This document shows, piece after piece, positions 1 through 49,008 of a stretch of DNA of 64,000 nt; positions within the stretch are counted from its first letter, which is position 1; the number at the start of each line of letters is the position of its first letter. This DNA is from Eledone cirrhosa (lineage: Eukaryota). Location of the stretch: positions 81,406,001 through 81,470,000 of the forward strand of contig OZ024747.1 of assembly GCA_964016885.1 (NCBI GenBank), written 5' to 3'. The notes below the pieces were generated by a model. It was not told the origin of the DNA. It made no database searches and saw only the letters and a program-made list of their open reading frames with translations. The translations under genes and the position numbers were made by a program.

Positions 1-141
1 AAGAAAAAAAAAAGATTATATATATATATATATATATAGAGAAAATTGAGGTTGGTAATGGCACATGGAATATATAAGAGACAGAATACTTTTTTGTGAA
101 AAAACATAATTTTATAAGGTAAGGAAATAATAAAGGGTATA

Positions 142-192
142 AAAAATGACCGGTTTCGATGGGTCTGCAAAAGCCATCTTTTCAAATGTTGA
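142..192 (-). ncRNA. Minimal hammerhead ribozyme motif, U3-A8 variant (3' pLTR copy)
   Basis: Minus strand reads TTGAAAA-GATGG-loop-CCATC-GAAA-CCGG-TC. Helix III is palindromic (ACCGGT) and helix I is weak. Confidence 0.6.
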
Positions 193-579
193 TTAATATT
201 AAGAAAAATTAATAATACGAAGAGTTAAAATTTGAGACTTGAAAATTCAAGTATAAAATTCATTGTGGGATTTCATAGCAGTTTTCATCTAGGTAGCAAC
301 AACAGGTTGACTGCTGTGTCCCTTTCTGGTAGTGAATGAGAAGTTATTTGGGGTGTGGGTTATTTCAAATATATATATATATATATACATACAGACACAT
401 ATATTTTTTCCATAATATAAGAAGTTGGGGCAGTGAAATTAAAATAATTCTGTGTGCGCATATATATATAGATATACGTGTGTGCACGTGCAGGGTTTAA
501 ACCTGATTCTACAGAATTGGTCTCTGGTCTTTAATAGTAGTGATTCCGTGCGTATGTGTGTTTATATTTTATGACAATT

Positions 580-2856
580 CTATTGGGGTGATAACCCGTT
601 TAGTTTTGGTTTAAATTTGTTAAGGAATAGATTTTCTTTGTTTATTCTTTGTTGTTGTGTGAACGAATCTGAGCACTTGTAGAAGGGGAAGATTTTTAAG
701 TTGGGTAGTGTCATTCCTGCGCAGTTCGCAATATGGCTGCTCAAGGGGATTTTTCTTGTGTTAGCGTCCCGGATTTGTTGGCGGTGGATGGTCATTCTTT
801 TGCGTAATGAGGTGCCCGTCTGTCCTATGTAGTTGTGTTTGCACCCACCGCAAGTTATTGCGTAAATCAAGTTCTCCGAGTTGCAGGTGAAATTGTTTTT
901 TACTGTAAATGTTTGGCCATCTTTGAATGTAAATGTTTGTCCTTCAGTGAGGTAGAGGCACGTTCCACAGTTTGTTCTACCACATTTGGTAACTGTAGGG
1001 TTGAGGATTGGTTTGGGTATATTTGGTCCAGTGAGAATGCGTTTAAGTGATTTGGGTTGTCTTTTACTTTTAAGGATCTTGTGTGTTTCAAGAATAGACT
1101 TCATTTTTACATCTTTAAGTAGGATGGGGAGGTTTTTGTGTAGGTGATCAAACATTTCGGTATTTCTGGGGTTGAAAGTGGATACATATGGCAGGGTGTT
1201 GAGTGTGGTTTTCTGTTTTGGATTGTTAAGTTGATGGGGATTTAGGTGTTTTGCCCTGTCTATTCCATTGTTGATTATTTCAAGTGGAAAGGCTCTTAAG
1301 ATAAGGGTGTCTTTTAGTTCCTTTAGTCTTTGCTCCCGTTTAGGTGGATCTGATACTATGGTACATATACGTTTGGCCAAATTGTAAGGAATGTTAAGTT
1401 TTGTATGTTTTGGGTGACTTGATGTGAAAAAGAGGTATTGCTTGGAATCTGTGGGTTTATAGAATATATCTGTATCTAATTTCCCGTCTATTACAGAGAT
1501 GAGAATATCCAAGAAGGCTAATTCCTTAGGATTGGATTCCATTGTGAATTGTATGTTATTATCTATGTTGTTTATCATGTTTTTAAATGTAGTAAGTGAG
1601 TTCATGTCTTCTTGCCATAGGATAAAGCAGTCGTCTAGATATCTTTTCCAATTGGCTTTGAGGTGTGTGTGGAAAGAGTCTCCAAATAAGAGAAGGGACT
1701 GACTGTATATTTGTTGTTCATGGAATCCCATGACTAGGTTGGCATATGTGGGTGCTACTTTCGTGCCCATTGCCGTACCTGATACTTGTCTGTATGTTGA
1801 ACCATTGAATGTGAAGTAGTTATTTTGTAGGATAAAGCGGAGTCCGTCAGTGATAAAATCTGTGTTGATGCGTGTCGGTATTTCTGATGGGTGTGTGTTA
1901 AGCCAGTATTGGACTGCTGTTATTCCATAGTTGTGAGGTATGTTTGTGTAGAGGTTTATTACGTCAAAGGAGACAAGAATTGTATTTGCACTTACTGTTT
2001 TAGGGAGGTGTTTCAGCATGTCAAGGTCATCTCGTATGTAGCTCTGTATATGTTGTAGAAAGGGTTTCAGTAGGATGTCCAGAAAGTTGCTAAGTCTGTG
2101 GGTTTCACATGTAGGGCCTGCTATAATTGGCCTGAGTTTTAGGTCTTCTGGTGGTGTTAGTTCAATGTAATTGTTGGTTGAGGTGTCACATGCATCGTTT
2201 ATGGGTTTACATTTGTGAAGTTTCGGTAAGCCGTAAAAAGAGCTTGTATTGCATTTGAAGTGGCTTATATAGTTAAACTCTTTTGTGGTTAAGCTGTTGC
2301 GGTATTTATTCAGTAAGGTCAAAAGGTTCCCCATTGTTTTGGTGTGTTTGTAGTTTTCTGTTTTTTCATAGTATGTGTTGTTTTCTAAAATGTTAAGTGC
2401 GAGGGTCCTATAGTAGTCCATATTCATAATCACAACAGTACTGCCTTTATCGGCTTCTTTGATAGTTATCTCAGGGTTGTTTCTAAGTGTGAATAATTCT
2501 TCCCATTCGTGTGTAGATAGGTTTGATTTCGTGTGTTTATTTGTAATTGTTTCATAGGGAAAGTTGGTGATGTGTTCGCAGTACGTGTCCAGTGCTTTAT
2601 TTCTTCCCTTTTGTGGGCAGAAATTGCTTTTATTTCTAACCAGTGATTCGTCTTCAGTGTTGGTGTCGTTGTGGAAGAATTCCGTTAGTCGCAGCTTTCG
2701 GCAGTATTCCATGATGTCATCCTTCATTTCGGGGAAGTTTGGTTTACGTGGTGTAGGTGTAAATTTCAGGCCCTTACTTAAAATGTTGATTTGTGTGTTG
2801 GTTAGAGGTGTCTTTGAGAGGTTGATTATTTTTGGTTTCTCCTGAGGGGGGGCCAT
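580..2856 (-). CDS. Penelope-like reverse transcriptase + GIY-YIG endonuclease (frame open from 2913; probably reached by -1 frameshift from ORF1)
   Basis: Motifs LSKGLKF, ADKG, FYGLPKLHK, LRPII, SFDVINLYTNIP, GTAMGTKVAPTYANL, RYLDD, YKPTD, SSHP. Cys linker CGRTNCGTC, then NLIYAITCGGCKHNYIGQTG..LRKRMTIH and C-terminal PKLN. Confidence 0.96.
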   Translation of the reverse strand: MAPPQEKPKIINLSKTPLTNTQINILSKGLKFTPTPRKPNFPEMKDDIMEYCRKLRLTEFFHNDTNTEDESLVRNKSNFCPQKGRNKALDTYCEHITNFPYETITNKHTKSNLSTHEWEELFTLRNNPEITIKEADKGSTVVIMNMDYYRTLALNILENNTYYEKTENYKHTKTMGNLLTLLNKYRNSLTTKEFNYISHFKCNTSSFYGLPKLHKCKPINDACDTSTNNYIELTPPEDLKLRPIIAGPTCETHRLSNFLDILLKPFLQHIQSYIRDDLDMLKHLPKTVSANTILVSFDVINLYTNIPHNYGITAVQYWLNTHPSEIPTRINTDFITDGLRFILQNNYFTFNGSTYRQVSGTAMGTKVAPTYANLVMGFHEQQIYSQSLLLFGDSFHTHLKANWKRYLDDCFILWQEDMNSLTTFKNMINNIDNNIQFTMESNPKELAFLDILISVIDGKLDTDIFYKPTDSKQYLFFTSSHPKHTKLNIPYNLAKRICTIVSDPPKREQRLKELKDTLILRAFPLEIINNGIDRAKHLNPHQLNNPKQKTTLNTLPYVSTFNPRNTEMFDHLHKNLPILLKDVKMKSILETHKILKSKRQPKSLKRILTGPNIPKPILNPTVTKCGRTNCGTCLYLTEGQTFTFKDGQTFTVKNNFTCNSENLIYAITCGGCKHNYIGQTGTSLRKRMTIHRQQIRDANTRKIPLSSHIANCAGMTLPNLKIFPFYKCSDSFTQQQRINKENLFLNKFKPKLNGLSPQ

Positions 2857-4091
2857 CGAGTATCCTGGTATTTTAGGCTTTTCCCTAAAAAAGGAATGTA
2901 GTTTTGTGTGTGATTATATTTTGTTGGTCTGTTGCGTGTGGGTCTGTAGCTTGTTGTTTCATGAGGGTGAATGTGATGGTGGGGGTGGTATGTGTTGTGG
3001 TTGTTGATGAGCAAGGGTTCTGTTGTTGGTTCATGTGGTCTGGGTGCGTTATTTCTGTGGTACAGAGTGTTGAGGCTGGGGGGTTGTCTTTTGTTGGATT
3101 GAGGGTGATGTCTGGTGTGGTTGTGGGTAAGTTCTGTTGTGATTTCAAGTGGCCTGGGTGGATTTCTTCTGAGGAATGTGGTGTGTGTGTTGTGAGTTGG
3201 ATCTATGTTATTTCGTCGTTGGTTTATGTAGGGGGCATTTCTACGGAAACCTGTGTTGTGGTGGTTGGGTGTGTTTCTTTTGGTGTAGTTGGCCGTATTT
3301 GGTTTGTATTGGTGGGGGATGTGCCTGTGGTTAGTGTGTGTTGGGTTTGGTGGTGTAAATGTGTCTGTTGTAGTTCTTGTTATGTTCAAATGCTTTATAA
3401 AGGGGTTACCTGTTTGGTGCGTCCTTTTAAAGTCTTCTTCATATTTGAGGAACCAGTTTTCGGATTTTTCCCACCGTTTAAGGGAAATAGTTTCTGCATT
3501 CTCGCAGTCCTGTTTCCACGATTTGATTAAATTTTGTAGGGTTGTTCCCTCGGCCTTTTTAGTGCATTCTTCCTCCATATTTTTATCAGTATCCTTATAC
3601 TCTTGCTCGTTTGAGGTGGCCCTTAATTTTAGGAGTTCTATTTCCATGTTTATCCTGTTGAGTGACATTTGTTCACGGAGTTTTCTTTCTGGTTCAGGTT
3701 CGTTTGTAATATGCTTTATTTGGAATTTACGTGGTAAAACTATCGGTGTTGAGTTAATCCATTTTTGGTAAATTCCAGCTTTGTTGAGGTTTTTTATCAT
3801 ATTCCAGAAAGTGAATTTTCTGGTTTTTAGATGTTTTTTCCAGAGGTGTCCCATTTGGTTTTTGATATGGAGCAATGTCGTTTGTTCTGTGTTGGTATTC
3901 ATAAGTTTTTCGATGGAGTTGCATACGTTTTGAACGTTTAAATAAATTTGGTTGTCAGTCGGTGTGGTGGTTTGGGGTATATCCTGTTTTTTTGTCAGAA
4001 TGGTGAGTTTTCCATTTATCTCTTTTAGGATTTTCAGGATTTCCTCATTGATATTGGAGTTTGAAGTGGTGTTGTCTTGTTCCAGTGCCAT
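2826..4091 (-). CDS. PLE ORF1, 421 aa: helical/coiled-coil-like N-terminal part and His/Asn/Thr/Pro/Arg-rich low-complexity C-terminus
   Basis: Uninterrupted ORF starting just downstream of the 5' pLTR and overlapping ORF2. It shares the A/C-rich strand bias of ORF2. I recognise no catalytic motif. Confidence 0.85.
   Translation of the reverse strand: MALEQDNTTSNSNINEEILKILKEINGKLTILTKKQDIPQTTTPTDNQIYLNVQNVCNSIEKLMNTNTEQTTLLHIKNQMGHLWKKHLKTRKFTFWNMIKNLNKAGIYQKWINSTPIVLPRKFQIKHITNEPEPERKLREQMSLNRINMEIELLKLRATSNEQEYKDTDKNMEEECTKKAEGTTLQNLIKSWKQDCENAETISLKRWEKSENWFLKYEEDFKRTHQTGNPFIKHLNITRTTTDTFTPPNPTHTNHRHIPHQYKPNTANYTKRNTPNHHNTGFRRNAPYINQRRNNIDPTHNTHTTFLRRNPPRPLEITTELTHNHTRHHPQSNKRQPPSLNTLYHRNNAPRPHEPTTEPLLINNHNTYHPHHHIHPHETTSYRPTRNRPTKYNHTQNYIPFLGKSLKYQDTRWPPLRRNQK
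2886..2892 (-). promoter_or_regulatory. Slippery heptamer U_UUU_UUA, candidate -1 programmed ribosomal frameshift site
   Basis: ORF1 reads CCT TTT TTA GGG. The -1 frame continues AGG GAA AAG CCT AAA ATA CCA GGA TAC TCG ATG GCC directly into ORF2. Confidence 0.8.
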
Positions 4092-4152
4092 TTTCCGGAT
4101 TTGCGTAGGTTAGTATATATGAAAAGTGTAATTTTCTACACAAAACGAAGGT

Positions 4153-4407
4153 TATAGAGAAAATTGAGGTTGGTAATGGCACATGGAATATATAAGAGAC
4201 AGAATACTTTTTTGTGAAAAAACATAATTTTATAAGGTAAGGAAATAATAAAGGGTATAAAAAATGACCGGTTTCGATGGGTCTGCAAAAGCCATCTTTT
4301 CAAATGTTGATTAATATTAAGAAAAATTAATAATACGAAGAGTTAAAATTTGAGACTTGAAAATTCAAGTATAAAATTCATTGTGGGATTTCATAGCAGT
4401 TTTCATC
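4153..4407 (-). repeat. 5' pseudo-LTR, direct repeat of 35-289
   Basis: Reads the same as 35-289 from tatagagaaaattgagg to gttttcatc. Confidence 0.95.
4261..4310 (-). ncRNA. Minimal hammerhead ribozyme motif, U3-A8 variant (5' pLTR copy)
   Basis: Same motif as 142-192. Confidence 0.6.
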
Positions 4408-5077
4408 GTTCACACAACAACAAAGAATAAACAAAGAAAATCTATTCCTTAACAAATTTAAACCAAAACTAAACGGGTTATCACCCCAATAGAATTGTCA
4501 TAAAATATAAACACACATACGCACGGAATCACTACTATTAAAGACCAGAGACCAATTCTGTAGAATCAGGTTTAAACCCTGCACGTGCACACACGTATAT
4601 CTATATATATATGCGCACACAGAATTATTTTAATTTCACTGCCCCAACTTCTTATATTATGGAAAAAATATATGTGTCTGTATGTATATATATATATATA
4701 TATTTGAAATAACCCACACCCCAAATAACTTCTCATTCACTACCAGAAAGGGACACAGCAGTCAACCTGTTGTTGCTACCTAGATGAAAACTGCTATGAA
4801 ATCCCACAATGAATTTTATACTTGAATTTTCAAGTCTCAAATTTTAACTCTTCGTATTATTAATTTTTCTTAATATTAATCAACATTTGAAAAGATGGTT
4901 TTTGCAGACCCATCGAAACCGGTCATTTTTTATACCCTTTATTATTTCCTTACCTTATAAAATTATGTTTTTTCACAAAAAAGTATTCTGTCTCTTATAT
5001 ATTCCATGTGCCATTACCAACCTCAATTTTCTCTATAACCTTCGTTTTGTGTAGAAAATTACACTTTTCATATATAT
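4406..5077 (+). repeat. Inverted pseudo-LTR (reverse complement of 666 to 35, extended through the 4113-4152 segment)
   Basis: Direct reverse-complement comparison. There is a 2-nt TC microhomology at the 4406-4407 junction. Confidence 0.93.
4880..4930 (+). ncRNA. Minimal hammerhead ribozyme motif, U3-A8 variant (inverted pLTR copy)
   Basis: TTGAAAA 4887-4893, helix II GATGG/CCATC, GAAA 4915-4918, predicted GUC cleavage triplet ending at 4924. Confidence 0.6.
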
Positions 5078-6129: not shown

Positions 6130-6418
6130 GATAAAGAACCCCTTCTGTCATGAATGATCATGAGTTTACATATAGATTGCTCTCCTTCAGGGCACCACAG
6201 AAGGTGTTTTTGTAGCAGACCAGCAGTCGCCCATGTATACCTGTCTCCCCTTTCCATGTCCCTGATGTTTTCCAAGGGAAAGGCAAAGGTCAATACAGCT
6301 TGACACCACTGACATTGCAATACATTTTTACAGCTGGGTGAACTGGAGCAACATGAAATAAAGTTTCTTACCCAAGGACACAACACACTGCCCAGGAATC
6401 AAACATACAACCACAGGG

Positions 6419-6487: not shown

Positions 6488-6488
<1 letters not shown>

Positions 6489-6676
6489 CGAAGGAGTTGT
6501 GGTAAGGAACCAGATGGACCATAATGCACCAGAGTACTCAATACTTAGGGTAGTAGAGTGGGTAATAGGAGCAAGTATGACTCCGATGGCAGAGCTCAAG
6601 CTGTTTTGACGGCTATTTCTAGTCCAGAAATAGCTTTCGAAACGGCTTGAGCTCTGCCATCGGGGTCATACTTTCT

Positions 6677-6680
<4 letters not shown>
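6488..6680 (-). mobile_element. Small hairpin element (55-bp imperfect inverted repeat + ~80-nt tail), probably PLE-derived
   Basis: Arms 6566-6620 and 6626-6680. Homologous to 37998-38198 and flanked by (TA)n. Confidence 0.75.
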
Positions 6681-6735
<55 letters not shown>

Positions 6736-6979
6736 GGTTGAATCAGTTTTAAACTAGTTAACCCACCATTCAACAGAGTACTCAATACATAGATAGGATA
6801 ATAATGTATGACTTTATTATAAAGAGTTTCAACTAGCTGTTGAATCGACAAGAGCTCAGCCATTGGACCTTGACTCTTTATGATATAAAGTATATTTATA
6901 TATACATATACTAATATATACACAAGTTCATATATATATATACAAACACAAATATGCACATATATAAACGCACACTGAA

Positions 6980-13385: not shown

Positions 13386-13854
13386 ATAATTGTATATATA
13401 TCCAACACTTTCTATCAGGGGAAAATGCAGACATTAAATGATGATGATGATGGTAGAAATATGTAAAACCTGGAAAATTTCTTCTTATTCTCTCATTACA
13501 GTAGTAAAAAGAATCCTAGTGTTTGACCAACACTTTCCTAACCAGCTGACTATTTATCCACAAACTCTGGTAACTATTTCTGACAACTAGATCAATGTAG
13601 GTAAGGCGGAATGAAGTATCCTGTTCAAAAGTACAAGTAGATTTGAATAATTATATTTCAATGTTTAATATATTTGGTCAATTTTCTTGCATAGACACAC
13701 ATACAAATACATGTGCTCACTAGAGAATATGACAGAGGGAGAGGGAGAGAAAGAGAGGGGGAGCAATATATAACTGTATGCCTACAAGACAATGAAATAG
13801 AGATTCATTCATATACATAAATATACACGGTAATGTATAAGTAAAGATACATAA

Positions 13855-14708
13855 TCATCATCATCATCATTTTACGTCCGCTTTTCCCTGCTTGCAAGGG
13901 TGGGATGGGTCTTATTCAGCACACATCTCTCCACTCGTCACGGTCCTTCGTCATCTCCACCGTCAGCTTCAATGATCTGAGGTCTGTTCTCACCACCTCC
14001 GCCCATGTTTTTCGTGGTCTACCTCTACCACGTCTTCCTTCAACTGGCATTTCCTGGCACTTCTTCACCAATCGGTCATCCTCCATGCGCATCACATGTC
14101 CATACCACCTCAGTCTCTTCTCCCGTACACTACATTCTATCCCTCTCAGACAGTTTCTCTCTCAACACATTCATGCTGGGTCGTTCACGCACATTTACAC
14201 TGCACATCCTTGCCTCATTTCTCTCCAGCCGTCGCATATCCTCTGCAGTTGCTGCCCATGTCTCACTACCATGCAGCATCGCGCTCCTCACACAGGCATC
14301 ATACAACCGGCCTTTCTTCTGAGAAACCCTTCTTCGTCAACAGAGGAAGCAGCTCCCTAAACTTCTTCCAACCCGTCCTTATTCTAGATACTATGGCCTC
14401 GGAACACCCTCCTCCCATGCTAATCTGATCTCCTAGGTACCGGAAGCTATCCACCACTTCTATAGCACCCTCCTGCATTTGAAAAATGTGTCTATCAATG
14501 CGACTTCTACTGTCTAATTTCCCTGTACATCTACTGCATACATATTTCTCCCTACCTGTTAGTTTGCCTGCTATCCCGCTACATCTCTTGTGTACCCAGG
14601 ATCTGCATTGTGTGCATTTTATAGAATTTATGCCAGTTCCTTTTCTGCATATCGAACATGGCCATTTCCCTGACGGAATCAGGGTTTTGTCCTCTTTTCT
14701 ACTCATCA
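13855..14708 (-). mobile_element. 5'-truncated RTE LINE (frameshifted) with PHD finger within the RT C-terminus
   Basis: GKWPCSICRKGTGINSIKCTQCRSWVHKRCSG..CSRC, VDSFRYLGD, GWKKFRELLPLL. The tail is (GAT)n on the minus strand. Confidence 0.92.
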
Positions 14709-16731: not shown

Positions 16732-17275
16732 ATATATATACATACACATATATACATCTACATATATATATATATATATATATATACCTACACACACATA
16801 TACATACACATACGTATGCATACATACATACACACACACACATATAATTATATATATAAGGAAGAACATAAATATTATATAAAAAAACCTAAATATTGTA
16901 TATAAAAAAAAAATAAAATAAAAAAAAAATAAAAAGTTGGGAATACGACAAATGATAAATAAAAAAATATATTTAGAAAAGGGTATAAATGTTTATAACA
17001 GATTTAGAGCACTCAACAAGTTCCTGGAGCAAATGATCAATGAAAATAAGCATTAAATCACTGTATGTAATTATGCATACACACACACACATACATATAC
17101 ATATATATATAATATATATACATATATATACATACACACACACACATACAAACACAACCACAGAAATACACACGCACATACATATACGTATATATATATA
17201 TATACACTCACATAGGAAAAAGTCTGACCCCACGGCAGAGCTCAAGCCGTTTCTGAGGCTATTATATATATACAC
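15775..17275. repeat. Compound (TA)n/(CA)n/(TACA)n microsatellite field
   Basis: Visible dinucleotide and tetranucleotide repeats. Similar fields occur at 6680-7130, 36960-39780 and 56500-57010. Confidence 0.95.
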
Positions 17276-25305: not shown

Positions 25306-26494
25306 CATCATCATCATCATCATCACCGTTTTACGTCCGTTCTTCCACGCTAGCATGGGTTAGACGGGTTGTCCTGTTGTGGGCAGTGTCTGGTCGGCTG
25401 ACCATGCCTTGCTCATACAGGAACTGATCTGGCTTGATTTCTACAGCTGGATGCCCTTCCTAACACCAACCTCATTTACAGTGAGTGCTGGGTGCTTTTT
25501 CGTGGCGCCTACACGTCCACTTTACAGTGTGGGCTGGGTGCTTTTTTGCCGTGGCACCTCCACGACCACCTTGCGGTGGGGGGGGGGGGCATATTGTTTA
25601 TATGCTTCAGCATGTACCCATGGGAGGTCGGGTACCCTGTATTACTGCGTGACGCCAGAAGTCACGGTCGTGTGTCATTGACTTTGAGAGGTGTAGTTGG
25701 GTAAGGTCGGCTTTTATCACCTCATCCGAAGTCATCTTGGGTCTCCCCACTCCGCGGTTTCCATCAACTTCTAGTGCTCTGCACCTTTTTATGCAGCTGT
25801 CATCCTTCATACGCATCACATGTCCATACCAGCGTAACCGCCTCTCCTGCACGCAGCATTTGATTCCTCTTATGCTCAGTCTCTCTCTCAATTCATTTAT
25901 GCTTTGTCGTTCACGTATATTACTGTTACACATCCATCGGAGCATGCAGGCTTCGTTTCTCTCTAATCTACGTAAGTCTTCCACCTTCAGCGCCCAGGTC
26001 TCACTACCATGCAACATCGCTGTTCGGATACACGCATCATACAGTCTGCCTTTCATTCTGAGGGAGAAGCCTTTTGCAGCTAGCAGTGGTAGTAGTTCCC
26101 TAAACTTCTTCCATCCCGTTCTTACCCTAGTTATTGTACTTTCTGAGCACCCACCTCCGTTGCTAATTCGGTCACCTAGGTAGCAGAAGCTGTCTACTGT
26201 TTCTACAGGGCCCTCCCAGAGATTGGTGGTACTTGTTTCCTGTGGCTGTTTGCTTGCTGTTTCAGCACAGCTGCTGCATGTGAATCCTACATTCTTAATT
26301 AAGCTTCCTGAGATCCCGCTACATCTCTTGTGTACCCATTGTTTGCATTTGGGGCAAAGAATGGAGTTCCTACCTACACCTTTCCTACATACTGAGCAAG
26401 GCCATTTCCCTGAGGGGATCTGGGTTCTGTTTTCTCGTCTACTTATAAGGACCTTAGTCTTTGTCATGTTGACTTTGAGGCCCTTTCTCTCTAG
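25306..26494 (-). mobile_element. 5'-truncated RTE LINE with PHD finger; open C-terminal ORF, 3' UTR and (GAT)n tail
   Basis: LERKGLKVNMTKTKVL, PHD-type Cys/His pattern, VDSFCYLGD, MLHGSETW, RRLRWYGHVMRM, GRPK. Confidence 0.95.
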
Positions 26495-28044
26495 TGTGTA
26501 TGCATATATGTGTGTTTTGTATTTATTTGTGGTGTGTGTGTAAGTGTGTGTTTGCATGATGGAGGTGAGTGAAGATGTTCTTATAAATACCTAAACATTG
26601 AGATACACACTTACTTATTGTATATATGATTGACCTGAAAGTCATTTGCAGAAAATGAAATTTTTTCGCTATGTGGCTTTTATTATTTGAGAGAATATAG
26701 TGTTGTCTAAGTATTTTATTGATATGTATAGTATATTTATATTGTGCTGTTGGTGCTAGTGAAAAGAACTAGGTTATTATGTTCCTATTTCTGAATATAT
26801 TCAATTTTTTTTTGTGATGTTTACCCAGTGCAAACTTTGGAGTTTATGAAAGATTGGCCTCTTCCCAATAATTTTGGAAGGAGTTAACACATGGTGTTAC
26901 TTGAATTGATATGTTTGATGTTAGAAGTAACAACGCACAATTTTTAATACCATATTTCTAATGAGATATAACAAATATTTTTCAATTAAGTTTGTCAATG
27001 TGCAATAATTTGATGAGATTTAGTAAAATAACTACCACGTTATTAGCCTGGCATTTAGTACTCAGCTGCATAAAGATATTCCTCCATGACATTAGGATTT
27101 TTAATTTAAATACTTTAAAATGGGGTTTGTGGTAGAACTAGGGTAGTTATGGTGTAAAACGAGTTAATGTCAAAATGATGTGCAATAAAGTTGATAGAGA
27201 GAATCCTGTTGATAGATTTCTGACAGGAAACCTCCAGTTTCAGGGATGTGAGATAAGTGGTGTCTATAAATGGCTATTGTTATTGTCACATGGCAATATA
27301 TAGAACAGCTATAAGTGGAAATATAACAACCAGTTTAGAATAGACAAATACCACAAAATGGTTGCACAGAAGAAGCAGAAGCAAAAGACTAGAAAGAAAG
27401 AAAAATCCAATTGAAGCGAGTGACATAAAAGAGGGGGAAATGTTGGGAAAGAAATCTTTAATGTAGATGAAGCTGCAAATGTGAGCGATTAAACAAATTA
27501 ATTATGATAGGTAAATTGTCATGTAGAAAATAATGTAAATATTGATGGAGGATGGAATGATCTTGCTGCTTCTGTTGCTTCTAATGAACAAACAGATTGT
27601 GATAAACAGAAGCAGTGGGAACCAGTGGATATACATTGCAAGCCATATCCCTGATGAGAGTGAGTGAAGTGGGCAACAAAGACAGGGGTGGATATCCTAT
27701 ACAGGATATGACACTGGGAGAGCAGTGTTCATGTAAAATATAATGGAAATTAGATGTTGATGATGGTAGTCAGATAAAGATGGTGGGGGATAAGAAAGTG
27801 CCACAAAGAAGAATGTTGCAATGACTTGAAAAGGTAATTAATACTGAGACTGATAATAATGATGTTGAGATAATTATTACTGATAACAATGATGAAGACA
27901 ACAATGATGAAGATGGTGCTGATAGCAATTATGAAGGAAAGATAAGGATAAATGGCCATAATAATGATGTGGATTAAAGATAATAGATGATGATGATGAT
28001 GATGATACTACTGCCCCTACTACTATTGCTACTACTACTACTAA

Positions 28045-30305: not shown

Positions 30306-31740
30306 ACAACAGTAGCATAACACAGCAATATTATAAATAGTAACAACAACAGAAAAAAAAACTCCCAAAACATCAATGGTAGGAAATATAATAAAGAAAC
30401 AAGCAATATATATGAGCAACAACAAATATAATGAGAGAACAAGCTGACACAAATCAATTTGAAAATCAATGCAGTGTTAAGTGAAGTCATTTTCCAAACT
30501 GAAATGTGTGGATGTAACAATGTTTATACATCAGTTATTTTCATATGGACAGTGCAGCTGGCAACACCCAAAAACTTGTCTACTGTAAAATCATGTGAAA
30601 ATGGCTCGAGCATAAATCTCTTTTCTTTTGATAACTACTATATCTACCCACTTCACTTTAATCCATTGATACTTTTTTACAGCTTGAGAATAGTTCTGTC
30701 CAGCAACCATTATCAGAGCTGTCAGCAGACATGGTTTATAAAGGGTTAGCACTTTGATAATAGAATTCATAGCCAGGCTACTTATATGTAGTAACCATTA
30801 TACAGGGCAGGCTACCAGCTGCTACAATAATGAAAAAGTTAACTAACTGACAATGGGATCAACAGCTTAAAACAGCTATATGTTGTACTCATTACATAAT
30901 GCTGTTAATTTATGCAGGTGTGAAAGGATTACAGAATTCAGAATAGGATTTATAGGTATAGAATGGAATTTATTAGCCATTAAACAATGCTACCAATAGT
31001 TGTGGACATGAGAGCAATAACATACTAACCATGACATTTACAATTAGAAATATTGTATATAGATATGTGTAATAGTCATGGTGCTAACAGTAATTGTGGT
31101 CACAAAAGCATTAAAACACTGATAAGAGAATTTTTGAATTTCGAAGAGTTATTATATGTAGTAACTATTATACAATGATTCTGTGCTGCTAGTAATTGAG
31201 AAGATGAAAGGGTTAACACATTGTCAACTAGATTTGCAATCAGAATAAGTTATATGATGCTCTGAAGCTCTATATTGTAGCCATTATGTTGGGCTGTCAG
31301 AGCAGCTTCAAACTCGAAAGTGTGAATTAGCATTTGAAAGCAGATTTCATGTCTAACAGTGAGATATCAAAAGCAGAACAGGATATTAGGTACAGATAAT
31401 GAATAACGTGATGATATGAAAATAGCAAGAGACTATAAAATTGAAATCATTTACATCTATGTAAAATAACCTATGTCTCTATATAATGTTATGCCATGAA
31501 ACATGCTGGTATTTTTTTTGTGTGTTCAACTTTTCATATTATACTTTGAAACATTGGTTTTATTTGAACATTGTTGTTTTTGTTTTGTTTTCCCCTTTCT
31601 AGTAAATAATTATCTTAGGGAAACACAAGAGAACAATATTATCAAACATTTCTGATTATGTGATTTGTTTAATATTTTTTACCCCTTTTGGTATTGGTCA
31701 TCAATAGCAGTAGTGGCAAATATATATATTTATATATATA

Positions 31741-31820
31741 ACAAAGGAAGTGTGGTAAGGAACCAGATGGACCATAACGCACCAGAGTACTCAATACTTA
31801 GGGTAGTAGAGTCGGTAATA
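31741..31820 (-). mobile_element. Tail-only fragment of the hairpin element family (6488/37998)
   Basis: GTGGTAAGGAACCAGATGGACCATAACGCACCAGAGTACTCAATACTTAGGGTAGTAGAG nearly identical to 6499-6559. Confidence 0.8.
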
Positions 31821-37802: not shown

Positions 37803-37997
37803 AATATATATATATATACATGCATACACATATATCTATATATTTGTGAATATATATATATATATATTTGTATATATATATATATATATTTTTGTGTATA
37901 TATATATATATATATATATTTGTACATATATATATATATCAGTGCGTTTATATATATATTATATATATTTGTGTGTATATATATATATATATATATA

Positions 37998-38195
37998 TAG
38001 GAACAAGTAAGACCCCGACGGCTGAGCTCAAGCCGTTTCGACGGCTAATTCTGTACTCAATACAGAATTAGCCGTCGAAACGGCTTGAGCTCAGCCGTCG
38101 GGGTCTTACTTGTTCTTATTACCCACTCTACTACCCTAAGTATTGAGTACTTTGGTGCGTTATGGTCCACCTGGTTCTTTACCACATTTCCTTTG

Positions 38196-38198
<3 letters not shown>
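37998..38198 (+). mobile_element. Small hairpin element with perfect 55-bp inverted repeat containing the 3' half of a hammerhead
   Basis: Arms 38001-38055 and 38061-38115, loop CTCAA. Contains GTC-GAAA-CGGCT-tgagctc-AGCCG-TC. Flanked by (TA)n. Confidence 0.82.
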
Positions 38199-38235
<37 letters not shown>

Positions 38236-46232: not shown

Positions 46233-47524
46233 ATCATCATCATCATCATCATCAACGTTTAACGTCCGTGTTCCACGCTTGCATGGGTTTGGACGGGGGT
46301 AGTCCCACTTGAGGCAAGAGTGATTGTCTTGCTCGCATAGGACTGTCTGGCAGGTTTTCTACAGCTGGATGCCCTTCCTAACACCAACCACATTTACAGT
46401 GTGGGTCTGGGAGGTTTTTACCGTGTTGCCTACACGGCCACATTACAGCGTGGACTGTGTGTTTTTTTGTCGTGACACCTACACGATCTCATTTGTTTCG
46501 GCCTCGATGGCGCGGCACCAACATAACTTTACATAGAACGGGGTGGTGTGGATGGGGTGGGGGTGGTGGTGGTGGGACCGGGTGTATTTTGTTAGAGATG
46601 CCTACTGGCTGGAGTAGGTTTTACTATATATTTAGGTAAGGCGGGTCTTCTCTGTTACTGAGTACCGCCAAAGGTCTCGGTCCAGTGACATTGTCTTGGA
46701 GGGGTGTAAGTGTGTGATGTCGGAGTTTATCAGCTCGTCCCAGGTTTTTCTAGGTCTGCCTATTCCGTGACTACCGTCTATCTTTATTGCCCTGCACTTT
46801 GTTATACAGCTATCGACTTTCATGCGCATCACGTGTCCATACCAACGTAGCCTTCTCTCGAGTAAACAACATCTGATCCCTCTTATCTCTAATTTTTTCC
46901 TTAGTTCGTTTATGCTTTGCCGTTCACGTATATTACTGTTACACATCCAGCGGAGCATGCAAGCTTCGTTCCTCTCTAGTCTGCGTATATCCTCTGCACA
47001 CAATGCCCAGGTCTCACTGCCATGCAGCATTGATGTTCGTATGCAGGCATCGTACAACCTGCCTTTCATTTTTAGGGAGAACCCTTTAGCAGCTAATAGT
47101 GGTATAAGCTCTCTGAACTTTTTCCAACCAGTTCTGACTCTAGCTACAGTACTTTCAGAGCACCCTCCCCCACTGCTGATTTTATCGCCCAGGTAACGGA
47201 AGCTGTCCACTATTTCTATAGAACCCTCTGCGCAATTGAAAGAGCTAGTATTTTGTGGGCACTTGCTGCTACTTATTGCACCAGAGCACCGGCCACATGT
47301 AAAATCTATGTTCTTAGTTAGCTTACCTGTGATCCCACTACATCTTTTATGCACCCATACTTTGCATTTAGGACATAAAATGGAGTTTCTACCTACGCCT
47401 TTCCTACACACCGAGCACGACCATTTCCCAGAAGGGACCGCCGCCTTGTTTTCTTTCCTACAAACTAGTACTTTGGTCTTAGCCAGGTTAATTTTAAGTC
47501 CTTTTGACTCTAGGCCGTGCTTCC
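46233..47524 (-). mobile_element. 5'-truncated RTE LINE with PHD finger; open C-terminal ORF
   Basis: WKHGLESKGLKINLAKTKVL, CSVC..CPKC..HKRC..CGRC, VDSFRYLGD, RRLRWYGHVMRM, GRPRKTW. Has a (GAT)n tail and a 5' junction at (TA)n. Confidence 0.95.
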
Positions 47525-48019
47525 ATATATATATATATATATAAACAGTGATGATGATGATGATATATTTGACCTGTCCACAATCCTTTTCTCGCGGGCA
47601 CTTGGCCAAGCCGGTATGAATTTTTTTCTCTCTCTCTTTCGTCTGCGACTTCACAGAACTTATGTTTACCGAATTCGCAGACCAGACCCCTTCTTCCTCC
47701 CGTTAGACCTGTGCGAAATTCCTTCCTTGCTCACATTTCAACCAGGTTTGATGGTCTTTATTCTCTCGTTCACGATTCCAACGAATTTATATTCATAGAA
47801 ATCTGGGACTTGTTTCCTTCTTCCTCTTAAACCATTTTGTTTGTTTACCCAGCGTCCCCTTTATTTACGTGTCCCAACGACTTTTTTTTAGCCGTTGCTC
47901 GCACCAACCTGAGGTATATGGCCTTTAATGCGACGAAATGCCTACGACGGTTGGATGGCCACTGATGAGGACAAACTTTTTCATATGTAACCCATTTGCA
48001 GCGCCGCAGCTCCATTATT

Positions 48020-48093
<74 letters not shown>

Positions 48094-49008
48094 AGAGTCA
48101 GGACTCAACGACTGAGCTCTTACCATTTCAACAGCTAATTCCAGAGCAATCACACTCTACTACCCCCCCCCCCCCTCCCCAAGTAACGAGTACTCTGTTG
48201 AGTAATGGTCTAACGAGTTTCAAACTGAATCTATCCTGATTTATATATATGTGTATACATTATATTATATATAAAAGATGATCTTGCACATTTAAACCTC
48301 TCAAAGGAGATGAGAAAGTATCAAGATCTCTGGCATTATGCTGTACTACAAAAGATTTGCCTTACGATGTCCATGTGAATCATGCATACTCGTTCCTGCC
48401 CAACTTTTAGCTTCCTTACCCTTGATATACAGCTTTGGTCCAATCTGTGCATACAAGCACGGGAAGCTGGACATGCTCCACATTTTCTCCCTCATGATTA
48501 CATGGCAAAAAGCAAAAAATGTCTATCACCTCCAAGACTCACCTTCATGTCCAGCATTGAAAGAAAGGCACACCCGACAATATAATGCCATATACAACTC
48601 TCTCTTATGACCAACTACATGATACAACATTTGCTCTCTCTATGTATCTATGTTTATATATATAGGCATATATATAATCATCATTTTACCATCAGTCCAG
48701 CAAAGAAATAGAAAAAAACAGCAATTTCTGCATGTATACATATAAAGAAATGCATGCAACAACACAAGAATACACACACAAGAACACACACACACACATA
48801 TATACACATCAGTCTCTGACATGCATTCAATCAAGACATCTATATACGCACAGCTTTCATAACTGATTGAAATGTCACTGTTTTCATTACTAAAGTATCT
48901 CTGTAGAAATATATTCCAATGAATGATGTTAAGTTTCCAAGAAGATGTAATAGAATTTCATACTTTACAGAAGAAAACTACACTCATAATATATGCCTGT
49001 GAATATAT

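Follow-up and report, generated by a model that had tools for sequence, protein, structure and literature searches.

Short palindromic insertions in Eledone cirrhosa, assigned to a Hydra-clade Penelope-like element, end at a predicted RNA start and at a predicted hammerhead cut

Introduction

A short hairpin with a single-copy tail lies between (TA)n tracts in the genome of Eledone cirrhosa, in the middle of a 64,000-nucleotide stretch (contig OZ024747.1, positions 81,406,001 to 81,470,000; hereafter the window, numbered from its first letter). Is such a hairpin a mobile element in its own right or a by-product of another element, and how did it acquire its second arm? A preliminary description had proposed a self-propagating, non-autonomous hairpin retroelement of about 200 bp, one arm of which is templated from the other by a cDNA that snaps back on a ribozyme stem. 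The origin of the inverted ends and of the one-sided tail of Penelope-like elements (PLEs) as well as hammerhead cutting in vivo are stated to be open questions in passages of PMC8557442, PMC3846280, PMC4209133 and PMC11167929.

Results

Layout of the focal hairpin

The focal element occupied 38000-38197 and was bounded by (TA)n tracts on both sides. The perfect 55-bp inverted repeat reported earlier was found with arms at 38001-38055 and 38061-38115 and a 5-nt loop at 38056-38060; a single-copy tail of 81 nt followed on its 3' side. Inverted symmetry was confined to 38000-38116 and did not extend over the whole unit. The right arm indeed carried the 3' half of a hammerhead: GAAA lies at 38077-38080, helix III spans 38080-38098, and 38099 is the last base of a GUC triplet. 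The features are:

37980-37999, no strand: left (TA)n target tract; its ATA end equals the first bases of the tail
38000-38057, minus strand: tail-less arm, an inverted PLE 3' end, from the initiator-like A (+1, at 38057) to the proximal end point
38058-38060, plus strand: junction bases without counterpart in the parent copies L148 and L149; C at 38058 is the predicted cap-copied base
38061-38116, plus strand: tailed arm from +3, with the 3' strand of helix II, GAAA, helix III, the predicted cut after 38099 and the 3' strand of helix I
38117-38197, plus strand: 81-nt tail, the sequence that separates the two alternative end points
38125-38148, plus strand: small hairpin with a bulge, 9 nt beyond the proximal end point
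38198-38230, no strand: right (TA)n target tract, directly 3' of the focal element

In the parent a second hairpin of the same shape was located 6 nt past the distal end point, a position that is missing from the stub. The fold of lowest energy was this distal hairpin in 8 of 10 sequences; the proximal hairpin was not the minimum-energy fold.

The tail-less arm reached +1 at 38057 and was adjoined by a C that is not present in the parent. We considered that the loop might have been templated by the tail, of which it mirrors 11 bases. This was set aside, as +1, an added C and an in-register extension describe the loop equally well and also fit other copies.

Sequence relatives were present elsewhere in the window:

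6488-6678, minus strand: stub of an older subfamily with the same ends; its tail-less arm also extends to +1
31740-31820, minus strand: tail-only fragment
17205-17262, minus strand: lone tail-less arm fragment
48089-48241, plus strand: old, distant relative with inverted arm and tail; centre lost
6733-6896, minus strand: old, distant relative; centre partly lost

The stub at 6488-6678 was 85% identical to the focal copy over 193 columns and had the three mirrored arm differences described before. It carried one-sided changes besides, with an arm difference of 0.125 in the outer 48 nt compared to 0.02 in the focal copy.

Further repeats of the window were a second, unrelated PLE at 35-5076 with an RT and GIY-YIG reading frame at 583-2913 (minus strand) and an upstream reading frame at 2829-4109. 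It had a perfect 632-nt inverted end with the tail on the shorter arm only, (TA)n flanks and a hammerhead-like motif with a U3-A8 core; a CxxC motif in its linker suggests that it may belong to the Neptune group. As a parent of the stubs it was rejected, because there was no DNA match and the protein match was weak (E 1e-4). The segments 13845-14425, 25610-26590 and 46635-47702 we take, from their motifs, to be 3' fragments of the reading frame of an RTE-like LINE. At 6320-6400, beside the second copy of the stub, lies a sequence with similarity to a CORE-type SINE.

Parent element and its hammerhead

Some right arms ran upstream into sequence that was not mirrored, both in a set of 60 stretches drawn in genome order and in loci viewed before. 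Real long copies of this kind contained the motifs of RT and of a C-terminal GIY-YIG domain. In the Atlas the parent protein adjoined clusters of HTH_animal, RVT_1 and GIY-YIG at 0.95-0.99, while hmmscan against Pfam returned no family for either of two parent ORF segments. The motifs DKT, a CxCx5C linker, CxxC and CxH correspond to the set given for the Hydra clade in section 11 of PMC8557442; the RWK of that set reads RWR in the parent. Against nine long copies of a young subfamily, which has 318 long arms, the focal arm plus tail matched at 128-134 of 137 positions. The right arm and the 81-nt tail of the stub are thus, by sequence match and motifs, the 3' end of a Hydra-clade PLE with RT and GIY-YIG domains, and the focal element is almost certainly a stub of such an element, the clade being assigned by motifs. 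The parent pLTRs were arranged in tandem, with an inverted 5'-truncated copy and a tail at one end, and in tandem copies the tail continued into the 5' part of the ORF. PMC8557442, in its account of this clade, already describes head-to-head insertions in (TA)n with one tail.

A parent PLE with a full hammerhead, which had been anticipated, was found in the form of these long copies. Their ribozyme is a complete type I hammerhead of 112 nt that adopted the three-way junction when folded without constraints. The preliminary description had assumed that a canonical CUGANGA half was replaced by the mirror copy. This had to be corrected: the core of the parent is UUGAUAA and is located upstream of a different 5' strand. 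UUGAUAA is a U3-A8 variant, a type of PLE hammerhead that is on record in PMC4209133, as far as the hammerhead passages of that paper go. Among 53 distinct cores position 7 took all four bases and most other positions held; CUGAGAA with a C3-A8 mismatch was the commonest core of one older lineage (11 of the 53), a point against the mechanism proposed below. When canonical CTGANGA was sought no more than 30 nt from the GAAA box, 39 matches resulted, and the 20 that were viewed contained no canonical parent, most of them being chance loops or chimeras; L042 and L050 from this search were long forms. A looser pattern of this type had seven matches, none of them a parent.

The stub itself lacks the first core box and does not satisfy the definition of a hammerhead by both boxes and three helices. 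Among 150 of 154 Rfam matches listed there was no hammerhead family; these were microsatellite and hairpin matches to miRNA models. The mirror axis of the stub is the apical loop of hammerhead helix II. The axis had been placed at helix II, yet it is in the loop and not within the helix.

Copy number, targets and subfamilies

The genome-wide search for copies that the preliminary description had called for was done with an exact two-anchor pattern. It yielded 15,617 matches in the 3.0-Gb genome, while the reversed control pattern had none, i.e. the TA-flanked stub family comprises at least 15,617 copies. A DNA search retrieved 37 full-length copies with 94-100% identity, including the query, from 40 scored out of 1,499 candidates. 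All 30 viewed loci were flanked by (TA)n at either side and shared their ends, while the hairpin tips differed; this agrees with the TA targeting claimed before.

The focal subfamily had 1,147 stubs and 318 long arms, numbers from patterns that were not strictly matched. In another subfamily 3,539 stub matches compared to 7 long arms. Long copies with the same diagnostic bases as the stubs were present in each of three subfamilies checked. A minor variant was common to the long copy L156 and to the stubs L022, L024 and L098, the loops of which differ.

Stubs collapsed at the palindrome of helix III were seen at L015 1837-1970, L018 160-293 and L031 1852-2009 and constitute a third recurrent axis. 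Palindromic stubs of other, unrelated families were located within (TA)n tracts at L032 421-720, L045 929-1181 and L051 1668-2019.

Arms agree within copies and junctions vary between copies

The comparison of arms within and between copies, suggested earlier, was carried out with 65 copies in genome order. The arm distance was 0.054 within a copy and 0.125 between copies. For an 11-nt subfamily signature the arms were at most one base apart in 58 of the 65, whereas 77% of random pairs were two or more apart. At a variant site of one subfamily the arms agreed in 76 of 77 copies (68 + 8 concordant, 1 discordant; p=4e-10); the same subfamily had 26 one-sided changes, which fit later mutation.

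The centres of inversion were mapped as well. In one subfamily 80 copies had 56 different junctions, the commonest of which accounted for 5 copies, and in a mixed sample of older subfamilies 49 copies had 41. Because the arms match within a copy while the junctions vary, the mirror is likely rebuilt at each insertion, and probably from one source RNA. The concordance of the arms on which the preliminary description had built was thereby borne out; its self-propagating hairpin of about 200 bp was not, since loops are not inherited and long copies share the diagnostic bases in the three subfamilies checked.

The tail was almost always present and single. In one subfamily 23 tail-less loci compared to 3,539 tailed matches, and one of 80 copies had two tails. 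A count of 104 mirrored to 4 parent-type arms came from stretches centred on stubs and is therefore unusable as a ratio.

Some loops contained captured foreign or parent-derived sequence of 20-170 nt (L044 1534-1652, L037, L049, L050 and L055), and one of them formed a 119-nt palindrome of its own. Short pieces of distant parts of the ORF were found at the inter-arm junction of L120, L122, L135, L137, L143 and L055, which suggests template jumps after the cDNA had stopped. At L031 1363-1642, L045 1367-1652 and L039 1342-1565 arms were fused head-to-head with other hammerhead-like repeats, at the inverted end of the latter. Such joins may stem from two different RNAs primed at one site or from deletions between neighbouring copies.

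First fixed end: an initiator-like A

The end points of the arms were determined in one subfamily with a real long copy as the reference. Of 89 stubs 80 were parsed, nine having a mutated anchor, and the search window allowed about 20 further bases upstream. The A of a TTAGT motif (+1) was the end of 36 of 160 arms; three arms ended at -1 and none beyond -4. Reverse transcriptases add C opposite an m7G cap. The untemplated base at +1 was a C in the sense of the cDNA on 14 of 18 sides compared to 13 of 38 at other ends, with p=0.004, a value that is approximate because single-base inserts were counted from both sides. In the mixed older subfamilies, where 49 of 65 copies were usable, the base after +1 in the tail-less arm was A in 10, G in 4 and C in 4. 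With the cap-like C being less dominant in this sample, starts or stops appear to spread from about -4 to +2.

In 14 copies the tail ran into the ORF, and in 11 of these the ORF sequence was followed by a restart near +1. These 11 copies tie +1 to an RNA that contains the ORF, and the restarts suggest jumps from the 5' end of the RNA. In L346 and L357 (about 1560-2220) the unit from +1 to a point within the ORF was repeated twice, and the junction was the same each time; this would be expected of end-to-end jumps in series or of a circular RNA template. Taken together +1 is likely the capped RNA start of the PLE, a prediction made from the end points and the added bases. Initiator-like motifs and an internal promoter are known from other pLTRs, according to passages of PMC3846280 and PMC2377424.

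Second fixed end: the predicted ribozyme cut

A pattern for very short palindromes had 728 matches, a number that includes most loci twice, once per strand. Of the 80 arms of the first 40 loci, 44 ended exactly at the predicted hammerhead cut; 7 were one base short, 17 went one base beyond and 12 went further. Because arms that fell short of the cut by more than one base did not fit the pattern, this peak is controlled on the upstream side only. Twelve of the 17 arms that went one base beyond came from six blunt joins, which are compatible with the cut, too. The base added at the cut was A or T in 39 of 44 cases and C in 5; the predominance of C at +1 and of A or T at the cut provides an internal control. 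A tail was present in 34 of the 40 loci. A stall of the enzyme at helix III would place the stop one base later than the end observed in this class. We read these arms as cDNA copied from the 3' fragment of a putative cleavage. Against this, work on the Anolis element PAc found the cut site without RNA-seq reads, and cleavage was dispensable in vitro (PMC11167929).

Discussion

Proposed mechanism: two cDNAs on one RNA

The data are best described by a mechanism in which both cut strands of the target prime cDNAs on one RNA, which has a capped start and may be cut by the ribozyme, and in which the ends of the cDNAs are joined. We assign this full mechanism a probability of roughly 0.6. In detail, the mRNA would start, capped, at the initiator-like A in the loop of helix II; a start at this place would leave the mRNA with only the 3' half of the ribozyme. 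For reverse transcription the protein would use two internal start sites, some 60 and 140 nt away from the 5' end of the RNA, and each target strand would prime one cDNA at one of these sites on the same RNA. Both cDNAs would run off the 5' end, often gaining a C opposite the cap, and their ends would anneal via the short quasi-palindrome around +1 or be end-joined with small inserts. The commonest junctions were the in-register outcomes expected from annealing of cDNA ends at this imperfect palindrome. Read-through RNAs cut by the full ribozyme would yield the second, shorter stub with arms that stop at the cut, and uncut read-through RNAs would be the only source of long copies. Without sequence beyond the tail the stubs would be abortive products unable to spread by themselves, and the copies look like dead-end products rather than a self-spreading element. 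In vitro PAc cut and extended both target strands and used two internal start sites that bound the tail; the protein is a predicted dimer (both from the biochemical parts of PMC11167929).

An unlikely alternative, and the one that the preliminary description had favoured, is that the 3' end of a single cDNA folds back and is extended on the cDNA itself to give the whole second arm, with later trimming of the tip giving rise to the variable loops. It accounts for matching arms and for one tail per stub, and for the short stubs alone it is compatible with the data. In addition, some junctions are perfect palindromes that include non-parental bases (L021 and L289), and junction palindromes were read as self-priming on an antisense template in the pertinent section of Arkhipova et al. 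(2013, PMC3846280). On the other hand, a folded cDNA copies only what it contains, so that the tailed arm should be the longer one, and a copy cannot gain a tail that is absent from its template. Of 40 loci with long insertions, tallied by hand, 25 were clear: 14 had the tail on the longer arm and 11 on the shorter one. The reference for arm lengths was a copy of another subfamily, and the remaining 15 loci were unclear. Some tails were on the arm that was shorter by more than 2 kb (L310 and L341), and in an older lineage, again counted by hand, the tail was on the shorter arm in 7 of 10. Among 79 stubs the tail-less arm was longer in 20, the tailed arm in 24, and 35 were equal. The arms of L031, L045 and L039 joined to the inverted end of another repeat family also speak against it, though deletions between neighbours could yield these. 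Thus whole-arm snap-back fits poorly with the 11 long insertions whose tail is on the shorter arm; of the earlier proposal the concordant arms and the rebuilding of the mirror are supported, and copying of an entire arm is poorly supported. A local fold-back at the junction is possible.

Two joined cDNAs are also assumed by a reading in which +1 does not represent a start but a stall of the reverse transcriptase at the small apical hairpin of helix II, or a site of RNA processing. The parent has a stem-loop at this location, arm ends spread from -4 to +7, the bases preceding +1 look like a splice acceptor and, by a figure legend in PMC4209133, an intron of D. virilis Penelope ends inside its hammerhead. 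Yet the arms contain the AG instead of starting after it and there is no fixed exon before it. The sharp edge between -1 and +1, the different base added at the cut, and the initiator-like motifs of other pLTRs cited above argue against it as well. We regard this reading as improbable.

That the 200-bp hairpin is itself mobile, as a non-autonomous retroelement or a MITE, and is copied whole with its centre broken and repaired after insertion would agree with the very high copy number and the identical ends, and the ratio of 3,539 stubs to 7 long arms might indicate a defective source copy mobilised in trans; it is nevertheless very improbable and largely refuted already, because terminal inverted repeats around the whole unit are absent, no inherited loop dominates, long ORF-bearing copies share the diagnostic bases of the stubs, and random breaks of the centre would not cluster ends at +1 and at the cut.

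Three specific classifications were rejected. The stub is not a DNA-transposon MITE: there are no TIRs of the whole unit, and the stub represents the 3' end of an element with RT; a target site duplication is unreadable within (TA)n. It is not a non-LTR retrozyme, as the stubs are inverted monomers with half a ribozyme compared to tandem units with a complete type I hammerhead. Finally, copies of a self-propagating non-autonomous element would inherit the structure of a short master, which is at odds with the varying junctions (56 in 80 copies and 41 in 49).

Implications

We tentatively propose, at somewhat less than even odds, that most insertions of this family are integrated pairs of strong-stop cDNAs, both synthesised by the same enzyme complex on a single RNA with two start sites, and that the genome thereby records a capped start and hammerhead cleavage in vivo. 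If this is true, the start is placed within the ribozyme in such a way that the mRNA cannot cut itself, and promoter position and ribozyme act together so that most events yield only short dead-end hairpins. This would explain inverted pLTRs as well as the one-sided tail, and the hammerhead of PLEs would serve to limit full-length copies. The natural insertion junctions of this family, thousands in number, provide exact positions that can be tested: the capped start at +1, the two start sites of reverse transcription and the ribozyme cut.

In the genome as a whole one retroelement would account for at least 15,000 by-product hairpins, each of about 55 bp. Such stubs could be filed as MITEs, which has a bearing on repeat annotation and also on sources of double-stranded RNA. 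Our literature searches yielded no account of the stubs, of the cap signature or of the cut-site class; Repbase, Dfam and the supplement of PMC8557442 were outside these searches and may hold the family.

Comparison with known systems

Two familiar processes resemble parts of the proposed mechanism. In retroviruses minus-strand strong-stop DNA is formed when the cDNA runs off the capped 5' end soon after an internal start, and in twin priming of L1 two target strands prime on one RNA. The difference is that here the strong-stop products would integrate, and that overlapping cDNAs would result in a mirror and not in a simple inversion.

The closest relatives are the PLEs of the Hydra clade with a C-terminal endonuclease (EN+; Craig et al. 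2021, PMC8557442). According to the Hydra section of that paper they share RT with C-terminal GIY-YIG, the motifs DKT, CxCx5C, CxxC and CxH, a hammerhead in the pLTR, (TA)n targets, the inverted 5'-truncated copy and the tail on one end. Their unit is shorter than 3 kb with a tail of 30-40 nt and RWK, compared to about 3.8 kb, 81 nt and RWR here, and the same section is without fixed-length stubs in thousands, a cap-like base or a cut-site class.

Animal non-LTR retrozymes (Li et al. 2026, 10.64898/2026.07.22.740005; Cervera and de la Pena 2020) are likewise short, non-coding, related to hammerheads and derived from PLEs, as stated in passages of the former paper. Retrozymes are tandem with a full ribozyme in each unit (10.64898/2026.07.22.740005, same passages), whereas the stubs are inverted with half a ribozyme and are probably dead ends.

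The inverted pLTRs of Pen2 and Pen3 from Adineta vaga share with the stubs, in the relevant sections of Arkhipova et al. (2013, PMC3846280), the head-to-head arrangement, junction palindromes, an optional tail and an Inr-like motif. The self-priming on an antisense template proposed there differs from the two cDNAs from one sense RNA that our counts favour.

PAc, a Poseidon element of Anolis (Frangieh et al. 2024, PMC11167929), is similar in its AT-rich target, both strands of which are cut and extended, in its two internal start sites bounding the tail, in a tail that leads into the ORF and in a hammerhead just upstream, as far as the sections on target use and RNA structure report. In these sections the inverted arm is left unexplained and there are no RNA ends at the cut, whereas in E. 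cirrhosa genomic copies stop at the predicted cut.
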